A stretch of 64,000 bases of DNA from NCBI RefSeq assembly GCF_036971445.1, contig NC_091478.1:78926001-78990000 (forward strand), given 5' to 3'. A model generated the notes under the pieces. That model was not told the origin of the DNA. It did no database searches and saw nothing but the letters and a program-made list of their open reading frames with translations. Made by a program: the position numbers and the translations under genes. Position 1 is the first letter of the stretch, and each line of letters begins with the position of its first letter. Source of the stretch: Narcine bancroftii (Eukaryota). Of this stretch, positions 3,336-64,000 are shown in pieces.

Positions 3336-5716
3336 TAAAAATTGCAATCCATTAACCCTTTATGGCAATTGTGGGAGCATGGATTTTGAATGAGGATATG
3401 ATTGGACTTGGATTTAATGCTTTCTAAGGAGCAGATACTGGAAAATCAGTACTTTAAGAGAAGCCAAGCATTTTTAAATTTACCCAGAGAAACAAAGTTT
3501 GCAGGTTCCACAACTAATTTCATGTACAATAACTGAGGAGGTGCACTGGGAGGACACACAAGGTCCACATTAGTGGAGGAAAGAGCTCAGCATTTCACCC
3601 ACTATCCACCCATTGTCCTGTCAGCCACCTCCTCCCCCAATTGTGGATAGGACTGCAGTTTCCAATAATGCCCCAGAAGTAGAGTGGAGACATCTCGTGG
3701 AGACACAGGCAGGGTTTCGACGTGAAAAACATCAACCCTCCCTTTGCCTCTGTGGATGCTGCTCGAGTTGCTGAGTTTCTCCAAAAGTTTGTTATAAGCT
3801 GGAAGCAGCTCATCCTCAATCACAAAGGAAGAAGAATGTTTTGTATTTTAAAACAGATGCCAGGAGAGTTTGCAGTCTAAAGTGGCCTGGTTTGATCTCC
3901 GTTAGAGACAAAAATGCACATGCGATGTCCTGTATCGAAACAACGACCTGCTGGAGGAACTCAGCAGGTCCAAAGGTATCTGTGTGTGGGAGTTTGGGAC
4001 GGGAGGGGATGAAAGAATTGTTGATTTTTTTTTTGGCTCAATCCCCTTCATCGTGTCCAAGTGCGATATTCTGTTTATAATTCTGCAACCTTCTGCTAAC
4101 ATCTTCAACTAACATTAAATATGGTGTCGCGTGAACAATTTGAGATTACAGCTGATCTTGAAACGGTGTAAGGAATCATATTAATCTTTGGCATCACTTG
4201 TGATAACAAAAGCTCTTTCCTTTCAAGAGCTCCTAATTCCCTGACTGCTATTATCAGGCCCCTTCTGGTAAAAAATTGGAGAACAGTGCTGACAGAAAAG
4301 TGGGAGTAATATGGGTCTCATAAGATCGTGCACATCCCTTCAAGTAAAATAATACATAGAAGGGATGTTCACGATCTTATGAGACCCATATTAAGGAGAG
4401 GAAAACTTCAAGCCAAAGGGTTAATCTTTAAATTTAGCAGTAATTTAAAAATAAACCAATTGAAGCAACATTGATACACTTTGGTAATGAGAGAGATTAA
4501 ACTGAACCCATTGCAGCTGATTTATATTCACACAGCTATATCAAAGAGCTTTTTCCATTACAAAACAAGAAGGTGCATTTAAATTTTGTAAATTTGAACT
4601 TGGTGACAGAATAAATCAGCAAGATGTTCTTTCACCTTTGACACATGGAATACTGTCCAAAGTGGTTTTCCCCGCATTTTTCTCTATCAGTTGTTCAACA
4701 CTTCACTAAAATAAATTTGGACAGAATAACTCCAGTTTAAAAGAAAAACTGTCCCCAGTGATAGAAGGTTTGATAACCTAAGGACTCAGATTTAGCAGAA
4801 AAGGGGTGGCGGGGGGGGGGGGGGGGTGTTGGAGAATGCAGTCAGAATTTGGATTCATTGCCCAAAACAGATACAATTATTCTTTGTTTTCAGAAGAGAA
4901 AAGACAAAGAGCTCTGGAGAAAAGGCCTGACATTATAGCACTGACAGAGAGCTGATGGGCTGAATGGCCCACTCTGTGCTGTCTTGATTTTACGTTTTTA
5001 TTCCATGACTGTAAAGGTTGCAGGAGAGCGGCCATCTTGATACCTGTGCGCATGCTTGGCATATGCGCAATGCATATTGGAGTTTGGTTGCCGCATGCAT
5101 GAGAGTTAAGGATGCAAATTCAATATTGTCAGGGCACTTAACCCTCACACAACTGAACTCCACTGTACATGTACCAACTAAAGACTCGCACATGTTCACA
5201 GGGATCAAGATGGCCACACCCAGCCTATGGACCCTGGGTCGCTGACTAACATAGTAAGTACATACATTTTGGCTCTTACATGCCCTGTATCCCTGCAATA
5301 GTTTGTCAAATACAACATTTAATTAAAAAATTTGCTTTAAGACTTCGGTACTCCATGCACGAGGGCAAAATTCTGACTTACGTCCATTTCGAGATACTAC
5401 AAATTCTTCAGTCTCAGTTATGGTTGTAAGTCAGGGAGAACTTGTACTATTATCCCATTCTCTCTGGTTTCAATAAACACTCCAGACTCGAGACATTGAC
5501 TGACCATTTCTACCCATGGATGCTGTTTGACCTGCTGAGTTCCTCCAGAAATTGTTTGTCTGTTCAAGATCCCAGTGTCTGCAGTTTTTGAGTTTCTCTC
5601 TTGTTATCAATTTTTGCTTGCACTGCATTTAATATGCAAATTGATTTCTGCTTTTGTATTTTTTCTTCTGTTTTGTTGCTCAATTTACAAAATTGAATAT
5701 ACAAAAATGCAGTAGA

Positions 5717-15565: not shown

Positions 15566-17312
15566 AGGTGACACTTCCCAGCTTCTAACATTTCTCAATC
15601 TCAAAACATGTCACTTTCCAAGAGATGTAAGCCTCGATATTCTGAATTGCATCTTATTCATCCAAATAAATCAAACTTCGTATTTGGAGCTGTAAATAGC
15701 TTTAATTTTCTGTTGATAAAAGCAAATAAACATTTTCATAGCTTCACACTTCATAACAATGAGTAATAAAGTATATTGTAAATGATAACGAGACTCAACT
15801 TCAAACAAATATAAATGAATTAAAATGAATAATAATGATAAACTCAAAGAAAAGTTTCTTGAAAGCTCACATCTCTTCCATGGTCATTCTGAGAATGAGA
15901 AGAGAAGTCCCAGTCTGCTTGGATATGATGACATATGACATTACAGTAATGCTACAAAAACAATTAATCCTTAAAGGGAAAGTCATAAAACAAACATAAA
16001 TCATAAACACAAGGTGTTAACTTCTACAGCCAGTATGAAACAGATGGGTACCGTGCCCTGGCAGTGTGAGATGTTGAAGATGTCTATGACAACATTTTGG
16101 CAACCTATGTTCAACCCTGACCTCTGTTACAATCTGTATGGAGTTTACATGTTTTCTCATTGACTGCATCAATTTACTGAAGGCGATCTGGTTTGCTTCA
16201 ACATCCTAAAGATTTGTGGGTTGACGTCAATTGACCACTATTGGTTTATTGGTAAGTGGTAGAATCTGAAATGGATGTGGGTTCATGGAAATGTGGGGAG
16301 AGGATTAATTTAAGATTAGATTTTTTGCCCCAGTAATGGTGTGAAATATGCGAACAGTGTCCTTCTGGTGAAAGCCAACTGCATCTATGATATATACATG
16401 TGCAAAAGTTTTTTTATACATCTTGGTTCATACAATGGGGCTAAAGAATCCTGAACTGTGGAGATATTGCCAACCACATTGTGCTGAAGACTACATGGAC
16501 AAGTATAGTAACATCTTTATGAACAGGATGAACATCCCATTTATGTTTTTTAGATAGACTTTGTGTGATTTTACTGGTCTGAAGCATATCCAAAATCTTG
16601 GCATGGGTTGTTCACAAACGAACGACCAAAATTCAAAATCTCAATTTCTTTACATGAGTTTAGACAGCATACCGGAAGTTCAGTAAGTAAAGAAGCGGGA
16701 CTTGCAATGCCACTGCGTCCACATCCTTTTAATTATCCTGTTGTTTACGGAATGACTGTAGTTCACTTTAGACTGCAGACATTCCGGGAAATTGACACGG
16801 GATCCAGGAGGTAAAATGTCGGAACAGGAGTGTTACCCTCATTCCCATTCCAACCTTTTTACACAGCATTCATTCCAGGAAAATGGGAATATTTTCCTGG
16901 AATGCAGCGGCTGTGTAAAAAACATAATTGTGGACATCTGCTGGATGATTACATCTTTGACATTATCATGATGTCCATGTATGAAATGCAAATTTACTGT
17001 CACCTTGGCAAATTTACATTCTAGCTAATGCTGTGTTTTGATAAGATAAGCATGTGTTAAGCTGCAGTAAGATCCCACCCCTTCATATCTATTGAAACAG
17101 AGGATCAGTCCCTTATAAGTCCATTGTCGGTTGTTTTCTTCTAGCATTTGTGAAGTGTTAGACTTTATATATTGTTTCCAGTTGCAGAAGTCAACACATA
17201 GTGGTATGATTGTGTCTAAAGGAGTTTCTGGTGACTCAGGGTTATGACAACCCTGTTATTTCCTGAAATGGGTGTAGCAATCAGCCTGCAATTTGGAATA
17301 CAACACAGTGAT

Positions 17313-56100: not shown

Positions 56101-59100
56101 TTTTGTGAGACTCTTGGATGACAGCAGCCGTGAGATTTTGTTTGTTCACTGACCCTTTTGGCTGATGTCTCTCAGGTCTTCAGAATCCATTTCTCTTCTG
56201 TTCTTTAAAATAACTTGTCCAGCAAGAGCCCCATATATTGCAGGTCATCCTAGGTATTGAGATGTGTTAACTTATAAGTATTTTTGACCTACCTATCTGT
56301 ATTTTAGGTAGATGAAAGAACTTTGAGCTAAAATGAAAATGAAGATCCCAAGCACAATCCTGCTTTTATTTCCTCAATATGCATGAGAAGAATATTTTAA
56401 TTCTTTGACTATTAGATGTAGTTTAACACCTGTTCAAAGCCTTTCTTGGCTGGATATGTTAATTATTTTAAATTGTAGATAATTTAACAAGTTTAACTCC
56501 CATCCTCCATTTCCTGAATCGGATCATTTTGGTTTGGTATTTTGGGCGCATTGATACCTGGCAGCATAAAGCCATGAGCAACACTCCCATTTCCTTCCTT
56601 GAGAGGAAAGAGTGTTGTTGGATTATTTAACTTGTTCATACTGATTGTATTGGTGATTTTTTTTTTAAAAAGCTGCTGCGGCATGGAACATTTTCACAAC
56701 TTGTAGGTGTGAATAGAGGGGGTATTCCCACACAAGGTAATGCCTCGGAGCCCTCGTGGAGTTGTAGAGCTGCACAGCATGGATTTACACCCTTTGTCTA
56801 TCCAATCTGATGATCCATCCAAGCTCGTCCCATTTGGTTGCATTTGGCCCATATCCCTCCTAGCCTTTCTTGTTCAAGTAACTGTCTGAATGTTGCCATT
56901 GCACTCCCTTTGGCAGCTCGTTCCGTATATTTCATCATCAGGACCCTTTTAGATCTTTCCCCTGTCCCTGTCAACCCATGCCACCCAGGTTTTGGATTTC
57001 CCCAACCCTGGGCTAAAAAGACTAACATTAAAGGTTTTTTTTAGAAAAAAGTTACTGGAAGCAGACCTTTTAGTTTGGGAATGTTTTGAACTGGTGGCAG
57101 TTCGTTCCTTGTTGTTGGAGATCCTTGGAAGCCGGCAAGAGTATGTTCACTTGAGGCCAATTGCAAATGTGATTCAACAATTAGCATTACTGAAGAGGCT
57201 TCGTGTGTTGATTCAGTGGAAAATGAGCTTTAAAAGTTTGACTGGAATTTGTTGTAACCTCTTCAAAATTGAAGTGCAATGAACTGTTATTTTTTTCCCA
57301 CCCCACCCCTGCATTTGACCCAGGGACGACCTTCAGGCGATGCTTTTATTCAAATGAAGTCTCCAGATCGTGCTTTCTTGGTTGCACAGAAATGTCATAA
57401 GAAGACGATGAAGGATAGATACGTGGAAGTGTTTCAGTGCTCCGGAGATGAAATGAGCTATGTTTTAATGGGTGGCACTTTAAATCGTAGTGGCTTGTCT
57501 CCGCCGCCATGTAAGTTACCATGTAAGTTTTGAATTCTGACGCTCTCTTGCTGCTAAAGGCTGGAATTGTGGTAGGTGGAGGCTGGAGCTCTGTTTAGCT
57601 TTTTCATCTTTATCTGGTTTGCCGTGATCAATTTTTCATCAATCGAGGCTTGAGAATGAATTGGGGTTTTGATTTTTATATTTTGTCTCCCCACTCCCTT
57701 GCCCTTCCTCTCCCTCCTTCACCAAATGGCAAAATTGGGCATTGTACTGGGCGACTTTTGCTTTTTGGCACTTTCTGGAGCTCTGCAGTAGGTCTGCCTG
57801 GTAGTAGGATTTTTAAACTTTTGGAGGTGATGCTCATGGGTTGAAGATGAGGTGACTACTGGGGTGCAGTCTCAGAAAAGCTTTAACACAATGCCATAAA
57901 ATGTTGAGATTAGCTTTCACTTTTTTTATGTCATTAAAATTCAAGGATAAGCAATTCGTCAAATTACCAAAGAAGATGCTCGAATGCAAACCTTTGTTCC
58001 ATTTGGCAACTGTGGCTGTCTGCAGAGTTCAGACCCCTTGGAACATTAATCATGTGCACATCTATCTGGGACATCCGGTATGCTAATCCATCCTCATTTG
58101 CTTATTCGGCTGTCTGTGTTTCAGGCCTTTCCCCTCCGACGTACCCAACATTCACACCGGGTCCTGCTGTAATACCAGCCGAAGCTGCCCTCTATCAGCC
58201 CCAGGCCCTGCTGGCTCCACCGCGGTCAGCTCAACCTGTACCACCTGCAGTTGCCTATTACCCTACTCAGGCAACAGCCACTCAACTGTACATGAACTAC
58301 ACCACCTACTATCCAAGGTAACTTTTTCCAGCAGAATTGTTCTTTTCTCACTGATTTTAAAAATTTATATCTATGAGCTTGGGTTAGTTTAAGTAGTTGG
58401 CACAATCCTAGTCACCTGGGTTCAAATCCAGCGAAGACTGTAAAGAGTTTGTAAGTTCTCCCCGTGTCTGTGTGGGTTTCCTCCAGGTGCTCTAGATTCC
58501 TCCCAACCTTTTCAAAAGGTTTGCAGGATTAGTGGGTTAATTGGTCACATGGGTGTATTTGAGCAGCATGGTCTGGAAGAGCATGTATCTCTAAACTACA
58601 ACATGCACAGGAAGGTCCTGAACCATGCCTGCATCACCCTTTTCCCTGAGAATATTTGACATTGATTTTTGGGCCCCTTGCTTTTGCAGCCCTCCAGTGT
58701 CACCAACGACCATGGGATACTTTGCAGCTCCTCAAGCAGCGTTAGCTGCAGCATCATCGGCCACCCATGCTGTTCTACCACAACCAGGAGCACTTGTTCG
58801 CATGCAGGGGCTGCCTTATAATATTGCAACTAAAGACATCCTTAGTTTCTTCCAAGGATACCAGGTAAAGGCCTTTGATTTACCCTGCTTTTGAGGATCA
58901 CTTCTAGTCCTGCACTGCTCATTTTGATTTGAGGAGATTTTTACTTGAAACTTTAAAGATTGCCATGCCATGATTAAAATTTGTGTGTCTACATTACGGT
59001 TCACCTGTTGAGGCCTAAGGATATCTAACTAAGCATTTATTTTCTCGTGCCTTCTGTTTCTCGCTCTCCTGGATGTTTTGAATGACGTGCTGATCTTAAA

Positions 59101-62100
59101 GTGAATACTTTTTGGACCACCTGTGGCTTGGTACGGCCATGTGAAAATGGGAGTACTGTGTACATTGCACTTGATGTGGGTATTGATCTGTCAGCTGTGA
59201 ACAGTGATCTAATTTGGTTTTCATGCTATTTTGGGGAGATATTGGATGGTGGGTTTTGGGCTCCCTCCCTTGGAATCCTTTTTGGTTTTGTGGAGCTTTC
59301 TTACTGCATGTTTTGAACACTCTAATGAACAGTTGCAGTAGTACCAGACCTGCTGTAGTACAATACCATTTACGTGCAGTAAAATGTACTGTCTCAGAAC
59401 TAACAGGATTCTTTAATGCTGAAGTACAGGATGCAAAAAAAAAAAATCACATTTAATCCACCAGAATCCAATGTGCTTCTTTCTTACTATTTACTGCAGT
59501 ATCTGCTTTACTAACCACTTTTCTGTGGGAAGACCTGCTTGCATTAAGTTTACCTGTCTTTGATAACTGGGGCTCATTAAAATCCTTTCAGTAAAGTGGT
59601 CAAATTGAGGTGTGGCAGAATATCTGGTGTACAAATCTTTATATAAAAAAAAACTGCTCTTTCATTTTTCCAGTGGAAAAGTGACGTTTAATTCTCAATA
59701 AATACCTGCAAATGTAGTTTAATTGTTTTTTTGGTTTAAACTATGGTGTTCTGCCATTGTCATTGAGAGAGACAGCATGGAAATGGGTCCTTCAATGCCC
59801 TGAATCGCACGTCCTCTGCTCAATCCATTTTATTCTCCTTACACATACTAACCCATATGCTAGGGTCAATTTACAGGGGCTATTTAACCTGCAATTTGGT
59901 CCTTTTTGGGGTGAGGGAGGAAACTGAAGTACCCTGTTGGAACTCACTGAGAGAATGTGCAAGTTCCTCATGTTGTACTGGAAATGAAGTCAGAAGTCAG
60001 GTTGCTGTATCTGGAGGTATGATGATTTGCACCTTTCTGTCGCTGCAACTGCAGTGAAACACAATTCTGAGGAAATAATATTCCTTTTATTTTGGGTGAG
60101 CATTAGTATCAATTTTAACTAGTGGGTTCCCAACCAAAGTGGCTCTCTTATCCAAGTGTCCCATTTCCAATATTCTTTATGGGATCACCAGCTTGGTGCA
60201 CAAGGAGAAATCGTAATTCCAAAAGTGTTCTTATTCCACTTTTGTTTTTGTTTCCGCTGCACTCCAAAAACCAACTTGGTTCAGAAGAATACCTCGACTG
60301 TCATTTAACTCGAGTCTTTGATAAGAATTCCCAGTATGTTTAGCTAAATATAAATAGGTCCTGCTCTTGGCTTTTAAAAACAAAACTGTTGATGTGCATG
60401 CTTTGATTTCCACCTCCCCTCCCCACTCCTATTAAGCTGGGTATTCATCTCATCTCCTCTTTGAAGAAGTACACTTAATACTGGAGAACACCACCACATC
60501 TTTATCACCAGATTTCAGATTATCAGAACACGTAATATTTCAAATGATTTATTTACAAAGCTAGACCAAGCTGATTTATTGTTTAGAGGTGAGCGATATT
60601 AACCCTACCCGTACTTTGGGTTCTGAATTTTCTCTCTCACTGCCTCACTCGTGGGGTAGTGAGATTGTACTAGATTAAACTTTTGGCAAGAAGTAATAGG
60701 CACCTTAATATTCAAATACCCTTATTTCATGTTTATGTTTGGATATATTAAGTAGATTTCAGTCCTAACATTTTCATTCTTTTTAATGATTTTCTGGATC
60801 AATGTGTCTCCCTGTTACTTGACCTGCCATCCTCTTCCACGAAGGAAATCATTTGACAATTGGATTGTGTGAGAGCAGGTCTGGTAATATGCTAATAATT
60901 GCACTGTGTGGCTGGCCCAACTTAGAATGTGTGGCTGGGCAGGTTAGTCACAAGGTAATGGTTTTTAGAAGATGGTGGATGGGCCGACAGTGGATTAATG
61001 ATTCAGTGAGAGATTGCAATGTGAGTGTTTGGGAATGTTCATATTTGCTTTAATATAATTCTGATCCTTTTGCTTCAGATGCCTGAAGTAATAATGTACC
61101 CCACCCACCTTATTGGCAGGGGAGAATTTGAATGTTTTACAGATGAGATTAAAGTAAACCATTCTTAAACGATAAAACACTGACTGGCACCAAAGCTCAT
61201 TTTGTTTTGCTCCCAGTTCTCCCAGAACTACATAATGGACATTTCTATTAATTCCCCTACTTTGAGTGTTGTTTAACTGTTCTGACATTGTCTCTGAAGT
61301 TATTTTTCAACTAATTAAATATGAATGGTGTCTGATTCTAGATTTAACTATCCTCTTGAACCTTTTCTGGGAATTAGACTTTTTACTTTCGATCTTGTTA
61401 ATGGACACGTGAATGAACTTGCATTATTTTCCTTGTTTGACCTGCAGTTTATATACATTTTTTTTTAAAATTGACTTTTCATGAAGTTATTCTTCCATCT
61501 TAATTGGGAACAGTGTTGTAATGTAATGATCTTCTTGGCAAATGAGCATTAGCAACGAGTCTTGTGAGACTTTCCATTGTCTGTGTGGCTTCCCTTGTTC
61601 TGCCATGGATGTCAGAACTTTGGGGTAGACTGTGGACTCAGGCCAGCACCTAGAATTTTGCAGTTGTCTGCATTGAACCAGGTGGCGGGATGGACGCTCT
61701 TGTTGGCTCCAGGCGACATGATGTCAAAACCCTGCCCTAAAACCCCATCATAGCCAGCAAAGGAGGTGAGGAGTTTTGACTGAAATCCAATTTGCTTTAA
61801 TAGATTTAATTGCCTATTAAATAAAATTGCTTATTTTAAATTTTTTGGGTTTCTATTTAAAAAAAAAGAGCCCCTCTCCCTCACTCTCTTCCCCACTTCT
61901 GATTCTATGCCCCACAGACTCCATTAAATTCAATGTTTTGTAAGTAATTTCAACATGATCAGCTGGTGCTGATGAATTTGTTGAGTCCAGAGGTAGAGCA
62001 GTCTGTTGGATTCAAGCTCCCTCAATGTGTCAGAAGGGCGCCTACTTCAAAGTTTGCCAATCCTTGTGCACACGTCTTCAGCCTGGGCGCAGATATTTCC

Positions 62101-62478
62101 GTTCAAGGTTTCCTGAAGAGAACCAGATCAATCTGGCTCGATGTTTCATAAAATGCATGCTCCAGGGTCCCCCACATGATGGTTCTCCCCCAATGAACCC
62201 TGAACATCGGTGTCGATAGTCCTGTGGTCCAAGGAATGTGACTTTTACCTTTTGTAAAAACTAAAATTCTCTCTTGCCAAGTTAAAGCCCAAGCTAAATA
62301 CTTTCAAGGTTTGAAATTTGTGGTGAAGCATGCTCTCACCAAGCCATGTTCCTATTGACTGATGTGTGTATTCAAACTTGTACTGTAGTATGCACCTGAT
62401 GACTACAGCGGCCTTATTCAGATGAACGATCAAGCAAGGAGTATGTTTCAGGCACCCAAAGAGTGGGTCTGTTTGTAG
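31852..62478 (+). CDS. ESRP2: ESRP2, epithelial splicing regulatory protein 2; spliced CDS of 15 exons, 2109 nt / 702 aa with the long exon 12
   Basis: Exons join in frame at GT-AG boundaries from [17 protein letters not shown] to APKEWVCL*. N-terminal DnaQ-like region plus three quasi-RRMs. ESRP2-type residues: [48 protein letters not shown]. Confidence 0.93.
32170..32298 (+). CDS. ESRP2: ESRP2 exon 2 ([25 protein letters not shown]...ERVIAQ)
   Basis: aacag| acceptor, CAG|GTGAGG donor, 129 nt, phase 0-0. Confidence 0.9.
37516..37629 (+). CDS. ESRP2: ESRP2 exon 3 ([10 protein letters not shown]...[21 protein letters not shown])
   Basis: ttcag| acceptor, AAG|GTGAAG donor, 114 nt, conserved LCTDGQL and LHPEASKK. 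Confidence 0.93.
39162..41186 (-). mobile_element. L1 insertion with inverted 5' segment and a nested MITE
   Basis: Poly-T at 39163; antisense ORF2 C-terminus to ~40590; sense upstream ORF2 piece ([20 protein letters not shown]) to 41186; TSD AACTTGAGAGA at 39151-39161 and 41187-41197. Confidence 0.85.
40197..40492. mobile_element. Tc1/mariner-type MITE at a TA site inside the L1
   Basis: Imperfect TIRs TACACGATCCTT.ATCC / GGATAAAGGATCGCGTA; removing it rejoins the L1 reading [18 protein letters not shown]. Confidence 0.7.
42756..42870 (+). CDS. ESRP2: ESRP2 exon 4 ([22 protein letters not shown]...SMAE)
   Basis: tatag| acceptor; 115 nt; followed by the U12-type donor GTATCCTT. Confidence 0.9.
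42871..43498 (+). other. U12-type (minor spliceosome) GT-AG intron 4
   Basis: 5' end GTATCCTTCC; branch-site-like TTCCTTAAT at 43479-43487, about 12 nt from the 3' TAG; no polypyrimidine tract; the join restores the ESRP frame (MAE-Y-LEL). Confidence 0.9.
43499..43597 (+). CDS. ESRP2: ESRP2 exon 5 ([33 protein letters not shown])
   Basis: 99 nt, phase 1-1, donor ACA|GTAAGT. Confidence 0.88.
43688..43742 (+). CDS. ESRP2: ESRP2 exon 6 ([19 protein letters not shown])
   Basis: ttttcag| acceptor, CTG|GTGAGT donor, 55 nt, conserved VNYKFE. Confidence 0.92.
43790..43965 (-). mobile_element. V-SINE, antisense, in intron 6
   Basis: GGTGGGAGGAAAC..AAACCCATGCAGACAC core with TTTAAA tail. Confidence 0.8.
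44326..44436 (+). CDS. ESRP2: ESRP2 exon 7, start of RRM1 ([37 protein letters not shown])
   Basis: 111 nt; acceptor tgcag|CAG; donor AAA|GTAAGT. Confidence 0.95.
44826..45430 (+). mobile_element. Probable LTR remnant
   Basis: TGTTG start, ATTAAAG near 45332, CAACA/TGACA end followed by PBS-like TTGGTGATGAG; no clean TSD. Confidence 0.4.
47151..47196. repeat. (TG)n microsatellite
   Basis: About 22 uninterrupted TG units. Confidence 0.97.
47790..48735 (-). mobile_element. CR1 LINE 3' fragment, antisense
   Basis: [40 protein letters not shown]; antisense LADDTKL. Confidence 0.88.
49947..50170. repeat. Inverted pair of Penelope-type repeats forming a ~220-nt imperfect palindrome
   Basis: CTCAGCAGGT..AACAGTGTAC..AGCAAAGATAGA.ACATAACCAAC is mirrored by GTTGGTTATGT.TCTATCTTTGCT..GTACACTGTT..ACCTGCTGAG. 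Confidence 0.8.
50280..50412 (+). CDS. ESRP2: ESRP2 exon 8, RRM1 ([21 protein letters not shown]...HMGSRYIE)
   Basis: 133 nt; acceptor caaag|; donor GAG|GTGGGA; within ORF 50191..50439. Confidence 0.95.
50509..50551 (+). CDS. ESRP2: ESRP2 exon 9 ([14 protein letters not shown])
   Basis: 43 nt; ttccag| acceptor; GAG|GTAAGT donor. Confidence 0.95.
51455..51655 (+). mobile_element. V-SINE (HE1-like)
   Basis: CGGTTAGCAC..GGTTCAATTC head; CGGTTTCCTCCCAC core. Confidence 0.7.
52283..52584 (+). CDS. ESRP2: ESRP2 exon 10, RRM2 ([25 protein letters not shown]...AAEVQQ)
   Basis: 302 nt; atatag| acceptor; CAG|GTTGGT donor; within ORF 52240..52620. Confidence 0.96.
53472..54066 (+). repeat. Direct-repeat copy 1 of a 322-bp segment, interrupted by an RTE
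   Basis: Matches 55272..55593 apart from the insert and about two substitutions. Confidence 0.92.
53550..53824 (-). mobile_element. RTE-clade LINE 3' fragment
   Basis: Antisense [12 protein letters not shown]...[23 protein letters not shown] zinc-finger-like end; AGCCCACT at both junctions. Confidence 0.85.
54479..54697 (+). CDS. ESRP2: ESRP2 exon 11, start of RRM3 ([10 protein letters not shown]...[15 protein letters not shown]...HMVLNQQ)
   Basis: 219 nt, phase 0-0; gcccag| acceptor; CAG|GTAATT donor. Confidence 0.96.
55272..55730 (+). repeat. Direct-repeat copy 2 (55272..55593), running into a Rex1-like 3' end
   Basis: Lacks the RTE insert; continues to CAAATTTCAT.ACTTGTTCATGACAGTAAATTCTGA, as at 10950-10998. 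Confidence 0.88.
57324..57522 (+). CDS. ESRP2: ESRP2 exon 12, RRM3 ([11 protein letters not shown]...[10 protein letters not shown]); the short form ends at 57510
   Basis: cccag| acceptor; two GTAAGT donors at 57511 and 57523, 12 nt apart. Confidence 0.95.
58125..58317 (+). CDS. ESRP2: ESRP2 exon 13, Pro/Ala/Tyr-rich region ([10 protein letters not shown]...YMNYTTYYP)
   Basis: 193 nt; tttcag| acceptor; AAG|GTAACT donor. Confidence 0.94.
58375..58595 (+). mobile_element. V-SINE in intron 13
   Basis: GGGTTCAAATCC head; TCTCCCCGTGTCTGTGTGGGTTTCCTCC core. Confidence 0.8.
58690..58864 (+). CDS. ESRP2: ESRP2 exon 14 ([11 protein letters not shown]...[26 protein letters not shown])
   Basis: 175 nt; ttttgcag| acceptor; CAG|GTAAAG donor; ends in phase 0. 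Confidence 0.94.
62389..62478 (+). CDS. ESRP2: ESRP2 exon 15, coding part ([29 protein letters not shown]); exon continues to 62505
   Basis: ctgtag| acceptor; TAG at 62476-62478; donor AAG|GTAAGG at 62506; matches the canonical ESRP C-terminus. Confidence 0.92.
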   Translation, partial: YAPDDYSGLIQMNDQARSMFQAPKEWVCL

Positions 62479-63883
62479 ATGACCAACTTTACAAATGTCA
62501 ATAAGGTAAGGGAGAAACTTCCCAGCTGGCTCTCTGGCCAGACTTCACTCTCAAGTGACATCAACTGGTGTTTCAAAACTGGGATTTCCATTTCTCTCTC
62601 TCCGCCTCGTCTCTGAGACTATTCTCATCTTTCTCGGCATCTTCCAAGGTGAGGTGGTTTCAGCCACCTTTTGTGCTTTTTTTCTCAGCTGCTAGGAAAT
62701 AAATTGGTGGGAGGGGAGGTGGAAGGGTAATGAGTGAGTGGTTGAACAAACTTGCATTGATGCTATAATACAAATGGGAGCTAGGGAAGGAAAATTCCTA
62801 GTCATGAGAGGTGCAATGTGACAAACCACAATGAGCAGAGTGTGGTAGAGGTGCTCTTTGTCCTTCAAGAATGATTCAGAAATGCAGCTACAGGTTTGGA
62901 AGCTTGTGCTGTATATGGAATTCTCCATGGCCCTGGGCTCCTTTGAAAAGGTGCAACTGTGTAGATGTGAAGAACAATGAGACCAGGTTGCACAATGGAA
63001 AATAGTTTCCCCTCGTGAGGCGAGGATGTATTTGTGTGTCTTGCAGTGGATGGTAGTCTGCACAGTCAAAATGTGGTCATTTTCTGCCAAGGAAATAGAC
63101 AATGAATGATGATGTGCTTTCTTGCAAGCAAAATGATGTGCTCTTAAAATTAGTCTTTAGAGTTAATCAGGTCAAGTTCCTTGACCACTCCTTCACACAA
63201 AAAGACATTTGAGTGTCAATAATATCCTGCAGGAGAGCAGAAAACCTGAGGTTTTAACGGTTTCAATCCCAACAGACGTTGCTTGCCCTGCTAGCTATTT
63301 CTGGCACAGGTTTCAGCCTTCTGGAATCTGCTGGATTTTGTTTTGCTTTCACCAGCTCCATCTAACCAAATTTTGAGTGGTTGTGGTGATCTCAACTTCA
63401 ACTTTCTTTTGCAAATTGCAACATTGCTCTTTAAGGGTCGACCTAAAGCTCGTACTTCAAACATTAGATTTTGTAAGTACATCATTTTGCTTGTTGCCAC
63501 TTGTTCTCTGCGTTGAAGATAGAGAACACCTTTTTAATCCTTTTGGTGTTGGTTACTTTCCTGAATTCTGCTTTATTTTTCTTACTTTTTTCATTTTGTT
63601 AAATTACACTTTGCAAAACTTAAAATGTTTTAGTTTTATTTACATAGCAGCTAGATCATAGGCTGCCCACTAAGTCCTCTGAACTAATTGAATCAAATTT
63701 TATTCTTCATTGTACCCTCAAATTTTTAGCTGAACACCCACCTCCTGGATGAGGAAAATCATTAGACTGACTTGGAGTGTTCTTATGTTGCTGCACAAGT
63801 CGTGCTGAAGGACATCCGATTTTTTTTTTTTAAACATCAGAAATTGCCAAATACTCTTCAGTCTTTCTTCTTTTCTCTCTCAG

Positions 63884-64000
63884 CTTCATGCAGATACAAT
63901 CCTAATTCTGTACAACTTCAAAGGCCAGCCCAGTGGAGAAGCTTTGGTGACTTTCCCAACTCTCGAGATGGCTCGACAAGCTATGTCAGAAAAGAATGGA
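63884..64000 (+). CDS. ESRP2: ESRP2 downstream exon 16 (partial), C-terminal half of a fourth quasi-RRM (LHADTILILYNFKGQPSGEALVTFPTLEMARQAMSEKNG...)
   Basis: Strong polypyrimidine tract and ctcag| acceptor; open phase-0 frame to the window end; GQPSGEALVTF matches the qRRM motif of RRM1-3. Confidence 0.85.

Follow-up and report, generated by a model that had tools for sequence, protein, structure and literature searches.

A Cassette Exon at the 3′ End of Ray ESRP2 Is Predicted to Complete or Truncate a Fourth RRM

Introduction

ESRP1 and ESRP2 run the epithelial splicing program; they are studied in epithelial-mesenchymal transition and in cleft palate, with zebrafish as a main model. The present analysis concerns the 3′ end of the ESRP2 gene of the ray Narcine bancroftii, which is carried by a stretch of 64,000 nucleotides (nt) of contig NC_091478.1 (hereafter the window; coordinates refer to it and features lie on its + strand, unless stated otherwise). 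The translated exons 12-15 of this gene are 100% identical to the RefSeq ray model P0010. From the letters of the window, it had been proposed (hereafter the original prediction) that skipping of exon 15 gives an ESRP2 with four RRMs and that inclusion of this exon truncates the fourth one, RRM4.

Several described systems are close to this locus. The RBFOX RRM exon is an autoregulated exon that breaks an RRM. In mammalian ESRP1, exons 14 and 15 are cassette exons; the study describing them gives the protein three RRMs, with no further defined domain, and saw no effect of exon 14/15 skipping on localization (PMC5478600). A comparison of the human and zebrafish proteins is limited to RRM1-3 (PMC11344038). 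According to another study, qRRM2, one of the quasi-RRMs of ESRP1, binds GGU through Arg331, Phe335, Arg397, Tyr398, and Glu400, and the substitutions R397A and Y398A abolish this binding (PMC10853802). Finally, RBM12 deprived of its last RRM was found unable to rescue in a cAMP (cyclic adenosine monophosphate) assay, repression of globin being unaffected (PMC10502367).

Compared with mammalian ESRP1 (PMC5478600), the ray ESRP2 has the same exons, exon 15 bringing a stop and exon 16 coming last. Skipping leads to a few residues in the mammalian protein, whereas it would lead to a whole domain in the ray one. A description of a fourth ESRP RRM, or of a switch affecting it, was not found in the full-text literature searched, from which subscription journals are mostly missing. 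In the literature consulted, ESRPs are credited with three RRMs. We regard this domain-level switch as real, old and conserved, present in databases and apparently undescribed.

Exon Structure and Splicing at the 3′ End of ESRP2

Exon 14 (58690..58864) closes in phase 0 at the donor CAG/gtaaag. From sequence, junctions and a homologue model, its final 26 codons, which end in ...FFQGYQ, correspond to beta1-alpha1 of RRM4 (strand at residues 650-655 and helix at residues 663-669 predicted in the homologue P0001). The cassette exon 15 (62389..62505; 117 nt) supplies a 29-residue tail (YAPDDY...KEWVCL) and the TAG stop codon of the three-RRM form (62476..62478), and it retains a good donor (AAG/gtaagg). 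Its acceptor is the weaker one, with 10 pyrimidines out of 17 in the tract, vs. 17 out of 17 before 63884, where exon 16 begins. The last exon 16 (63884..64000 in the window) is untranslated when exon 15 is included. When it is joined to exon 14, its first 39 codons out of 52 would encode beta2-beta3-alpha2 of RRM4, and the frame continues for 13 codons beyond the window (loop 5 and beta4) up to a TAA codon located inside the 42 nt that follow the window end (positions 2040-2042 of the genome extension L002). An AATAAA signal is found about 700 nt beyond the window end. Thus, the half RRM in exon 14, the tail, stop and donor of exon 15, and the strong acceptor opening a phase-0 frame, all put forward in the original prediction, are borne out, and the final strand and stop expected past position 64000 are there, with an undisrupted frame.

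Between 58865 and about 69000, eight pyrimidine-rich AG sites were counted, and the exon 16 site is the only one that opens more than 19 phase-0 codons. Because exon 16 alone matches the Pfam RRM_1 profile (E value 3e-6; 27.4 bits for a cut-off of 20.7), its frame is, judging from the sequence, not a product of chance.

Transcripts were searched in four public runs (X1-X4), which belong to a single study, whose RNA label is a guess and which consist of assembled contigs; these were aligned to a region extending from position 58601 of the window to 1 kb past its end. In X1-X3, exon bins are about 10 times or more deeper than intron bins. Inclusion junctions (14>15 and 15>16) are present in 4/4 runs and the skip junction (14>16) in 1/4, all at exact GT..AG edges, which is the pattern of a cassette exon. 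In X4, whose exon depth is the lowest of the four, the skip junction has a depth of 14.8, vs. 34.5 for inclusion, i.e., roughly 30%; the last-exon contig of this run ends about 12 nt past AATAAA. Since contigs drop rare forms, the lack of a skip joint in X1-X3 does not mean absence. That the junctions derive from a processed copy is unlikely, a single copy having been found in the genome.

The view that exon 15 would be a poison exon triggering nonsense-mediated decay (NMD) was considered and rejected. NMD needs a stop located more than about 50-55 nt upstream of the last junction. The exon 15 stop is 27 nt from this junction, and therefore, by the 50-nt rule, the exon-15-included mRNA is predicted to escape NMD and both mRNAs should be stable. 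On sequence grounds, exon 15 is predicted to act as a protein switch and not as a poison exon.

Other splice variants were noted in the same region. A minor upstream acceptor of exon 16 adds 154 nt (63730..63883), which are 3′ untranslated region in the exon-15 form; the joint 15>63730 was seen in 1/4 runs (X2, depth 35 vs. 439). Read from the sequence, splicing of this acceptor to exon 14 would give a stop after 11 codons, and skipping of exon 14 (13>15 or 13>16) a stop after 12 or 7 codons. A form fusing part of exon 15 to exon 16, found in five proteins (P0004, P0037, P0054, P0123, and P0175), has no junction in the runs and is a probable gene-prediction artefact. Upstream, the end of exon 12 carries tandem donors 12 nt apart (57511 and 57523; with or without CKLP), a pair described as the nuclear/cytoplasmic switch of Esrp1 (PMC5478600). 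Downstream, some 3.5 kb beyond the window, a 24-nt pyrimidine-rich unit forms a long tandem array (L002, 5520-8000).

Fold and Kinship of RRM4

The folded protein is the homologue P0001, whose exon 16 is identical to that of the window at 44 of 52 residues; it was modelled with AlphaFold from a 68-row alignment. Residues 650-725 adopt a beta-alpha-beta-beta-alpha-beta arrangement in which beta1-alpha1 comes from exon 14 and the remainder from exon 16. With a predicted local distance difference test score (pLDDT) of 85-90, this is the best domain of the model, and the exon-15 tail of the P0010 model has a pLDDT of 32-60. Moreover, positions 2-69 of the 70-position RRM_1 profile align to the joined domain, as the best stretch, in five out of five four-RRM proteins tested (residues 653-721 in P0001), and a C-terminal RRM_1 stretch was found in none of three forms of other types, the best stretch being elsewhere. 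Both the profile match over the whole domain and the predicted fold are those of an RRM_1 member. Fold searches made with the whole 726-residue model gave lists taken up by matches to the other domains, and the leads from an atlas look-up of RRM4 were all below 0.9. Overall, frame, junctions, Pfam and AlphaFold support the view that skipping of exon 15 joins exons 14 and 16 into what is predicted to be a complete fourth RRM, which inclusion truncates.

The best single-domain PDB match of RRM4 is the last RRM of RBM12 (phmmer, 51.8 bits over 74 ungapped residues). Lower matches are qRRM2 of hnRNP H (41-43 bits) and the own RRMs of ESRP1 (24-27 bits). In a tree of 52 domains, built without hnRNP F/H rows, every RRM4 falls together with the terminal RRMs of RBM12 and RBM12B in a single clade (14 rows, support 97/96), which stands apart from RRM1, RRM2, and RRM3. 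From these comparisons, RRM4 is best described as a homologue of the last RRM of RBM12, and the parallel with RRM1-3 that had first been drawn does not hold. RRM4 and the terminal RRMs of RBM12/RBM12B (PDB 2cqp, 2ek1) share the same C-terminal position. The RBM12 and RBM12B genes of the ray are single open frames in which the domain is fixed, whereas in ESRP an intron divides it and splicing switches it. The contig that carries ESRP1 also has, about 1 Mb away from it, an intronless RBM12B-like gene (L015; G000:C5:322222535-322224715).

Distribution Among Vertebrates

Domain-aimed searches retrieved 280 proteins, so that the following are class counts and not frequencies. A clean second half of RRM4, 51-54 residues long, ends 119 of them (92 ESRP2 and 27 ESRP1), and 99 end with the exon-15 tail (KEWVC[IL]). 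The others have a short CLK/CLR end (15), an insert (8), another end (24), or are unclassed, their exon-14 pattern being unmatched (15). Annotated models with four RRMs come, for ESRP2, from sharks, rays, bichir, sturgeon, gar, teleosts, caecilians, squamates, birds, and marsupials, and, for ESRP1, from chimaera, sharks, rays, and gars. As had been suspected, the four-RRM form thus already exists in automatic gene models: the exon 14+16 sequence is present in RefSeq/UniRef entries (e.g., XP_072135254.1, XP_038041226.1, and XP_054165037.1), in which Pfam detects a fourth RRM, and which appear as numbered isoforms with no comment on a switch.

The ESRP1 gene of the same genome has the phase-0 split found in ESRP2, a 120-nt cassette exon in between, and a last exon of 52 residues. 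The homologue of exon 15 in this gene (G000:C5, near 321207991, minus strand) encodes a shifted tail lacking KEWVCI, and a skate model has a different shifted tail at exon 15. In mammalian ESRP1, the second half of RRM4 was found in 0/47 named proteins; the skip persists in 14 of these 47, giving an end of 4-6 residues. The second half is also absent from the ESRP1 models of coelacanth (four) and caecilians (four), which does not by itself show a loss. Among the 120 matches listed out of 322, no placental ESRP2 is named, which is weak evidence only. The idea that the half-RRM of mammalian ESRPs is a remnant consequently stands for ESRP1 and fails for mammals as a whole: loss of RRM4 is not mammal-wide, marsupial ESRP2 retaining the full domain.

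Over 68 ESRP2s, mean identity reaches 93% in the exon-14 half, 74% from beta2 to alpha2, and 42% in loop 5/beta4; the corresponding values are 90-96% in RRM1-3 and 70% in the N-terminal domain. The first half (58787-58864), with its 93% identity, is nearly unchanged in mammalian ESRP1.

Invertebrate Esrp and Age of the Split Domain

The breadth of the invertebrate data rests on one metagenome scan, which gave 80 Esrp loci, and one cluster look-up. Two invertebrate-type genomic loci (L086 and L092) contain both halves of RRM4, with a phase-0 intron at the same place as in ESRP2; two others (L058 and L060) contain the first half and the same donor, and L028 ends with a degenerate whole domain. 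In a mite, the fourth RRM of Esrp is complete in isoform X1, and isoform X2 loses the 23 residues of beta1-alpha1. Locus L017, which clusters with the mite protein, is of the X2 type, as is L018. RRM4 is lacking in several arthropod-type transcripts (L019-L025). These sequences indicate that the split domain is older than the divergence of protostomes and deuterostomes, and that splicing breaks RRM4 in two ways. The proposal of an ancestral architecture is accordingly supported beyond vertebrates. In the sea urchin, Esrp itself has an exon of 132 nt that the supplement of PMC5703972 lists as Esrp-enhanced.

In L058 (about 16400-16480) and L060 (about 5000-5070), the intron that follows the first half of RRM4 contains a common 28-nt block ending with a donor-like GGTAT, near a branch-point-like block. 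These elements may belong to a small cassette exon comparable to exon 15.

RNA-Binding Residues of RRM4

RRM4 and the quasi-RRMs of ESRP1 and hnRNP F/H (PMC10853802) share the same fold class, a GLP-aromatic loop and the G-E/D-A motif of beta3. They differ in the GGU clamp. At the five clamp positions, RRM4 of the window has Q, Y, H, C, and N, so that four of the five GGU-binding residues are lost and one is kept, and the four-RRM protein ends one residue after beta4, with no covering helix, unlike RRM1-3 in the same model. The domain of the window consequently lacks both the five residues and the helix after beta4 of a GGU-binding quasi-RRM. With the RNP (ribonucleoprotein) consensus taken as reference, its beta1 and beta3 also lack RNP aromatics. 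Across distinct vertebrate RRM4s, the equivalent of Arg331 is Gln in 89/89, the loop 5 Arg and Tyr/Phe are kept in 3/75 ESRP2 and 10/14 ESRP1, and the equivalent of Phe335 is aromatic in 74/75 ESRP2. The five-residue set is partly present in shark ESRP1 and in bichir and sturgeon ESRP2. The mite protein P0284 keeps all five residues (R, F, R, Y, and E), because of which RRM4 was probably a GGU-binding quasi-RRM ancestrally. RRM4 of vertebrate ESRP2 mostly lacks these residues and is probably not a fourth GGU reader; for ray ESRP2, this is held with good though not full confidence. Most likely, RRM4 would work there as a protein-interaction or regulatory module, a function deduced from the clamp positions, and the loss of rescue by RBM12 without its last RRM (PMC10502367) offers a parallel.

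Control of Exon 15 and Alternative Explanations

Directly downstream of exon 15, the intron contains a UGG/GGU-rich stretch (62506..62755), a candidate ESRP enhancer. Seven UGGUG/GGUGG/GUGGU 5-mers are found in it, a count reached by 2 of the 255 tiles of 250 nt in the window, including this one (mean 0.94), for a motif set picked after inspection of the sequence. ESRP motifs (UGG) sit downstream of ESRP-enhanced exons, according to PMC9550651. In the supplement of PMC5703972, a 110-nt exon of mouse Esrp1 passes from a percent spliced in (PSI) of 59/57 to 32/33 in Esrp1/2 knockout epidermis; the same source clusters this exon with a 102-nt exon of zebrafish esrp2, marked alternative. Autoregulation is likely, given the UGG-rich stretch behind exon 15 and the listing of its mouse homologue as Esrp-enhanced. 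It can be proposed that abundant ESRP would bind the UGG-rich stretch below exon 15 and promote inclusion of this weak exon, giving the three-RRM protein, and that when ESRP is scarce the strong acceptor of exon 16 would win, giving the four-RRM protein. As with the RBFOX RRM exon, a splicing factor would likely break its own RRM without triggering decay. ESRP2 differs from RBFOX in that inclusion, and not skipping, breaks the RRM, and in that the broken RRM is accessory and not the main RNA reader.

We are highly confident that a real, conserved switch operates at exons 14-16. None of the observations that were to count against it (lack of a 14>16 junction, a frame break past the window, lack of coding-type conservation) was made. 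That ESRP drives inclusion of exon 15 is favored by a little. The combined reading, in which exons 14 and 16 carry the halves of a fourth RRM, ESRP governs the choice of exon 15, and RRM4 is an interaction or regulatory module, is our preferred one and is held with fair confidence. Several points weigh against it. The skip junction comes from one run out of four, from one study, from contigs only, and with no tissue recorded; contig depth reflects expression poorly; and the evidence for the four-RRM form comes from transcripts and sequence. The modelled fold is that of P0001 and not of the window peptide, and the exon-15 control model, P0010, is weak throughout (mean pLDDT 49.6, 26 rows). Loop 5/beta4 is poorly conserved, and the tree rests on 79 columns, too few for the branching order inside the clade. 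Plain UGG enrichment is weaker (23/255 tiles reach the count), and the motif count of the ESRP1 paralogue, four, is reached by 7/159 tiles. In PMC5703972, the zebrafish esrp2 exon is labelled NR and has no event ID. Lastly, the allele used for the mouse knockout shifts the reading frame (PMC4566030), and decay of its mRNA could distort the PSI of the mouse exon itself.

Part of these data would also suit a switch that is real but governed by other tissue factors, e.g., RBFOX or neural or mesenchymal regulators. One TGCATG, which we take to be an RBFOX motif, precedes exon 15 by about 235 nt; differences of unrecorded nature exist among the four runs; and the NR label of the zebrafish exon points in the same direction. 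This is plausible but unlikely, the UGG-rich stretch being located where ESRP enhancers sit, the mouse homologue being listed as Esrp-enhanced (PMC5703972), and ESRP1 being reported to autoregulate another splice event of its own (PMC9550651). It is distinctly unlikely that vertebrate RRM4 still binds RNA, as a fourth GGU reader or via its beta-sheet, with the switch tuning affinity or target range. The complete clamp of the mite, the loop 5 residues of most ESRP1s and a few ESRP2s, the nearly constant aromatic at Phe335, and a beta-sheet left uncovered at the end of the protein would all fit RNA binding; the invariant Gln at Arg331, the absence of RNP aromatics from beta1 and beta3, and the H, C, and N of the window at Arg397, Tyr398, and Glu400, two positions whose alanine substitution abolishes binding (PMC10853802), do not.

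Alternatively, selection might keep the exon-15 tail on or off, RRM4 being a slowly decaying relic whose completion is incidental. Mammalian ESRP1 retains the skip though it yields a 4-6 residue end, the KEWVC[IL] tail ends 99 of the 280 retrieved proteins, and loop 5/beta4 is variable, as a relic would have it. We consider this improbable: the frame, its length and the stop are preserved in lineages ranging from sharks to marsupials; conservation of beta2-alpha2 is similar to that of the N-terminal domain; exon 15 of the same-genome ESRP1 and of skate has a shifted tail yet still cuts RRM4; and the mite breaks RRM4 by another route. The preferred reading can be extended, tentatively and at less than even confidence, to a history in which the ancestral Esrp had four RRMs, the last one, similar to that of RBM12, being turned on and off by splicing since before the protostome/deuterostome split, the vertebrate switch serving as a sensor of ESRP level and the exon 14/15 splicing of human ESRP1 being its remnant. 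With such a sensor, cells poor in ESRP would produce the four-RRM form, which would have other partners or targets, and RRM4 would be removed in fully epithelial cells.

Significance

If zebrafish, bird, and shark ESRP2 make the four-RRM form, results of rescue and cross-species experiments would depend on the isoform that was cloned. RRM4 also gives a reason for the strongly conserved C-terminal half-domain and for the exon 14/15 splicing of mammalian ESRP1. Moreover, it links ESRP to the terminal RRM of RBM12, the truncation of which is tied to psychosis.

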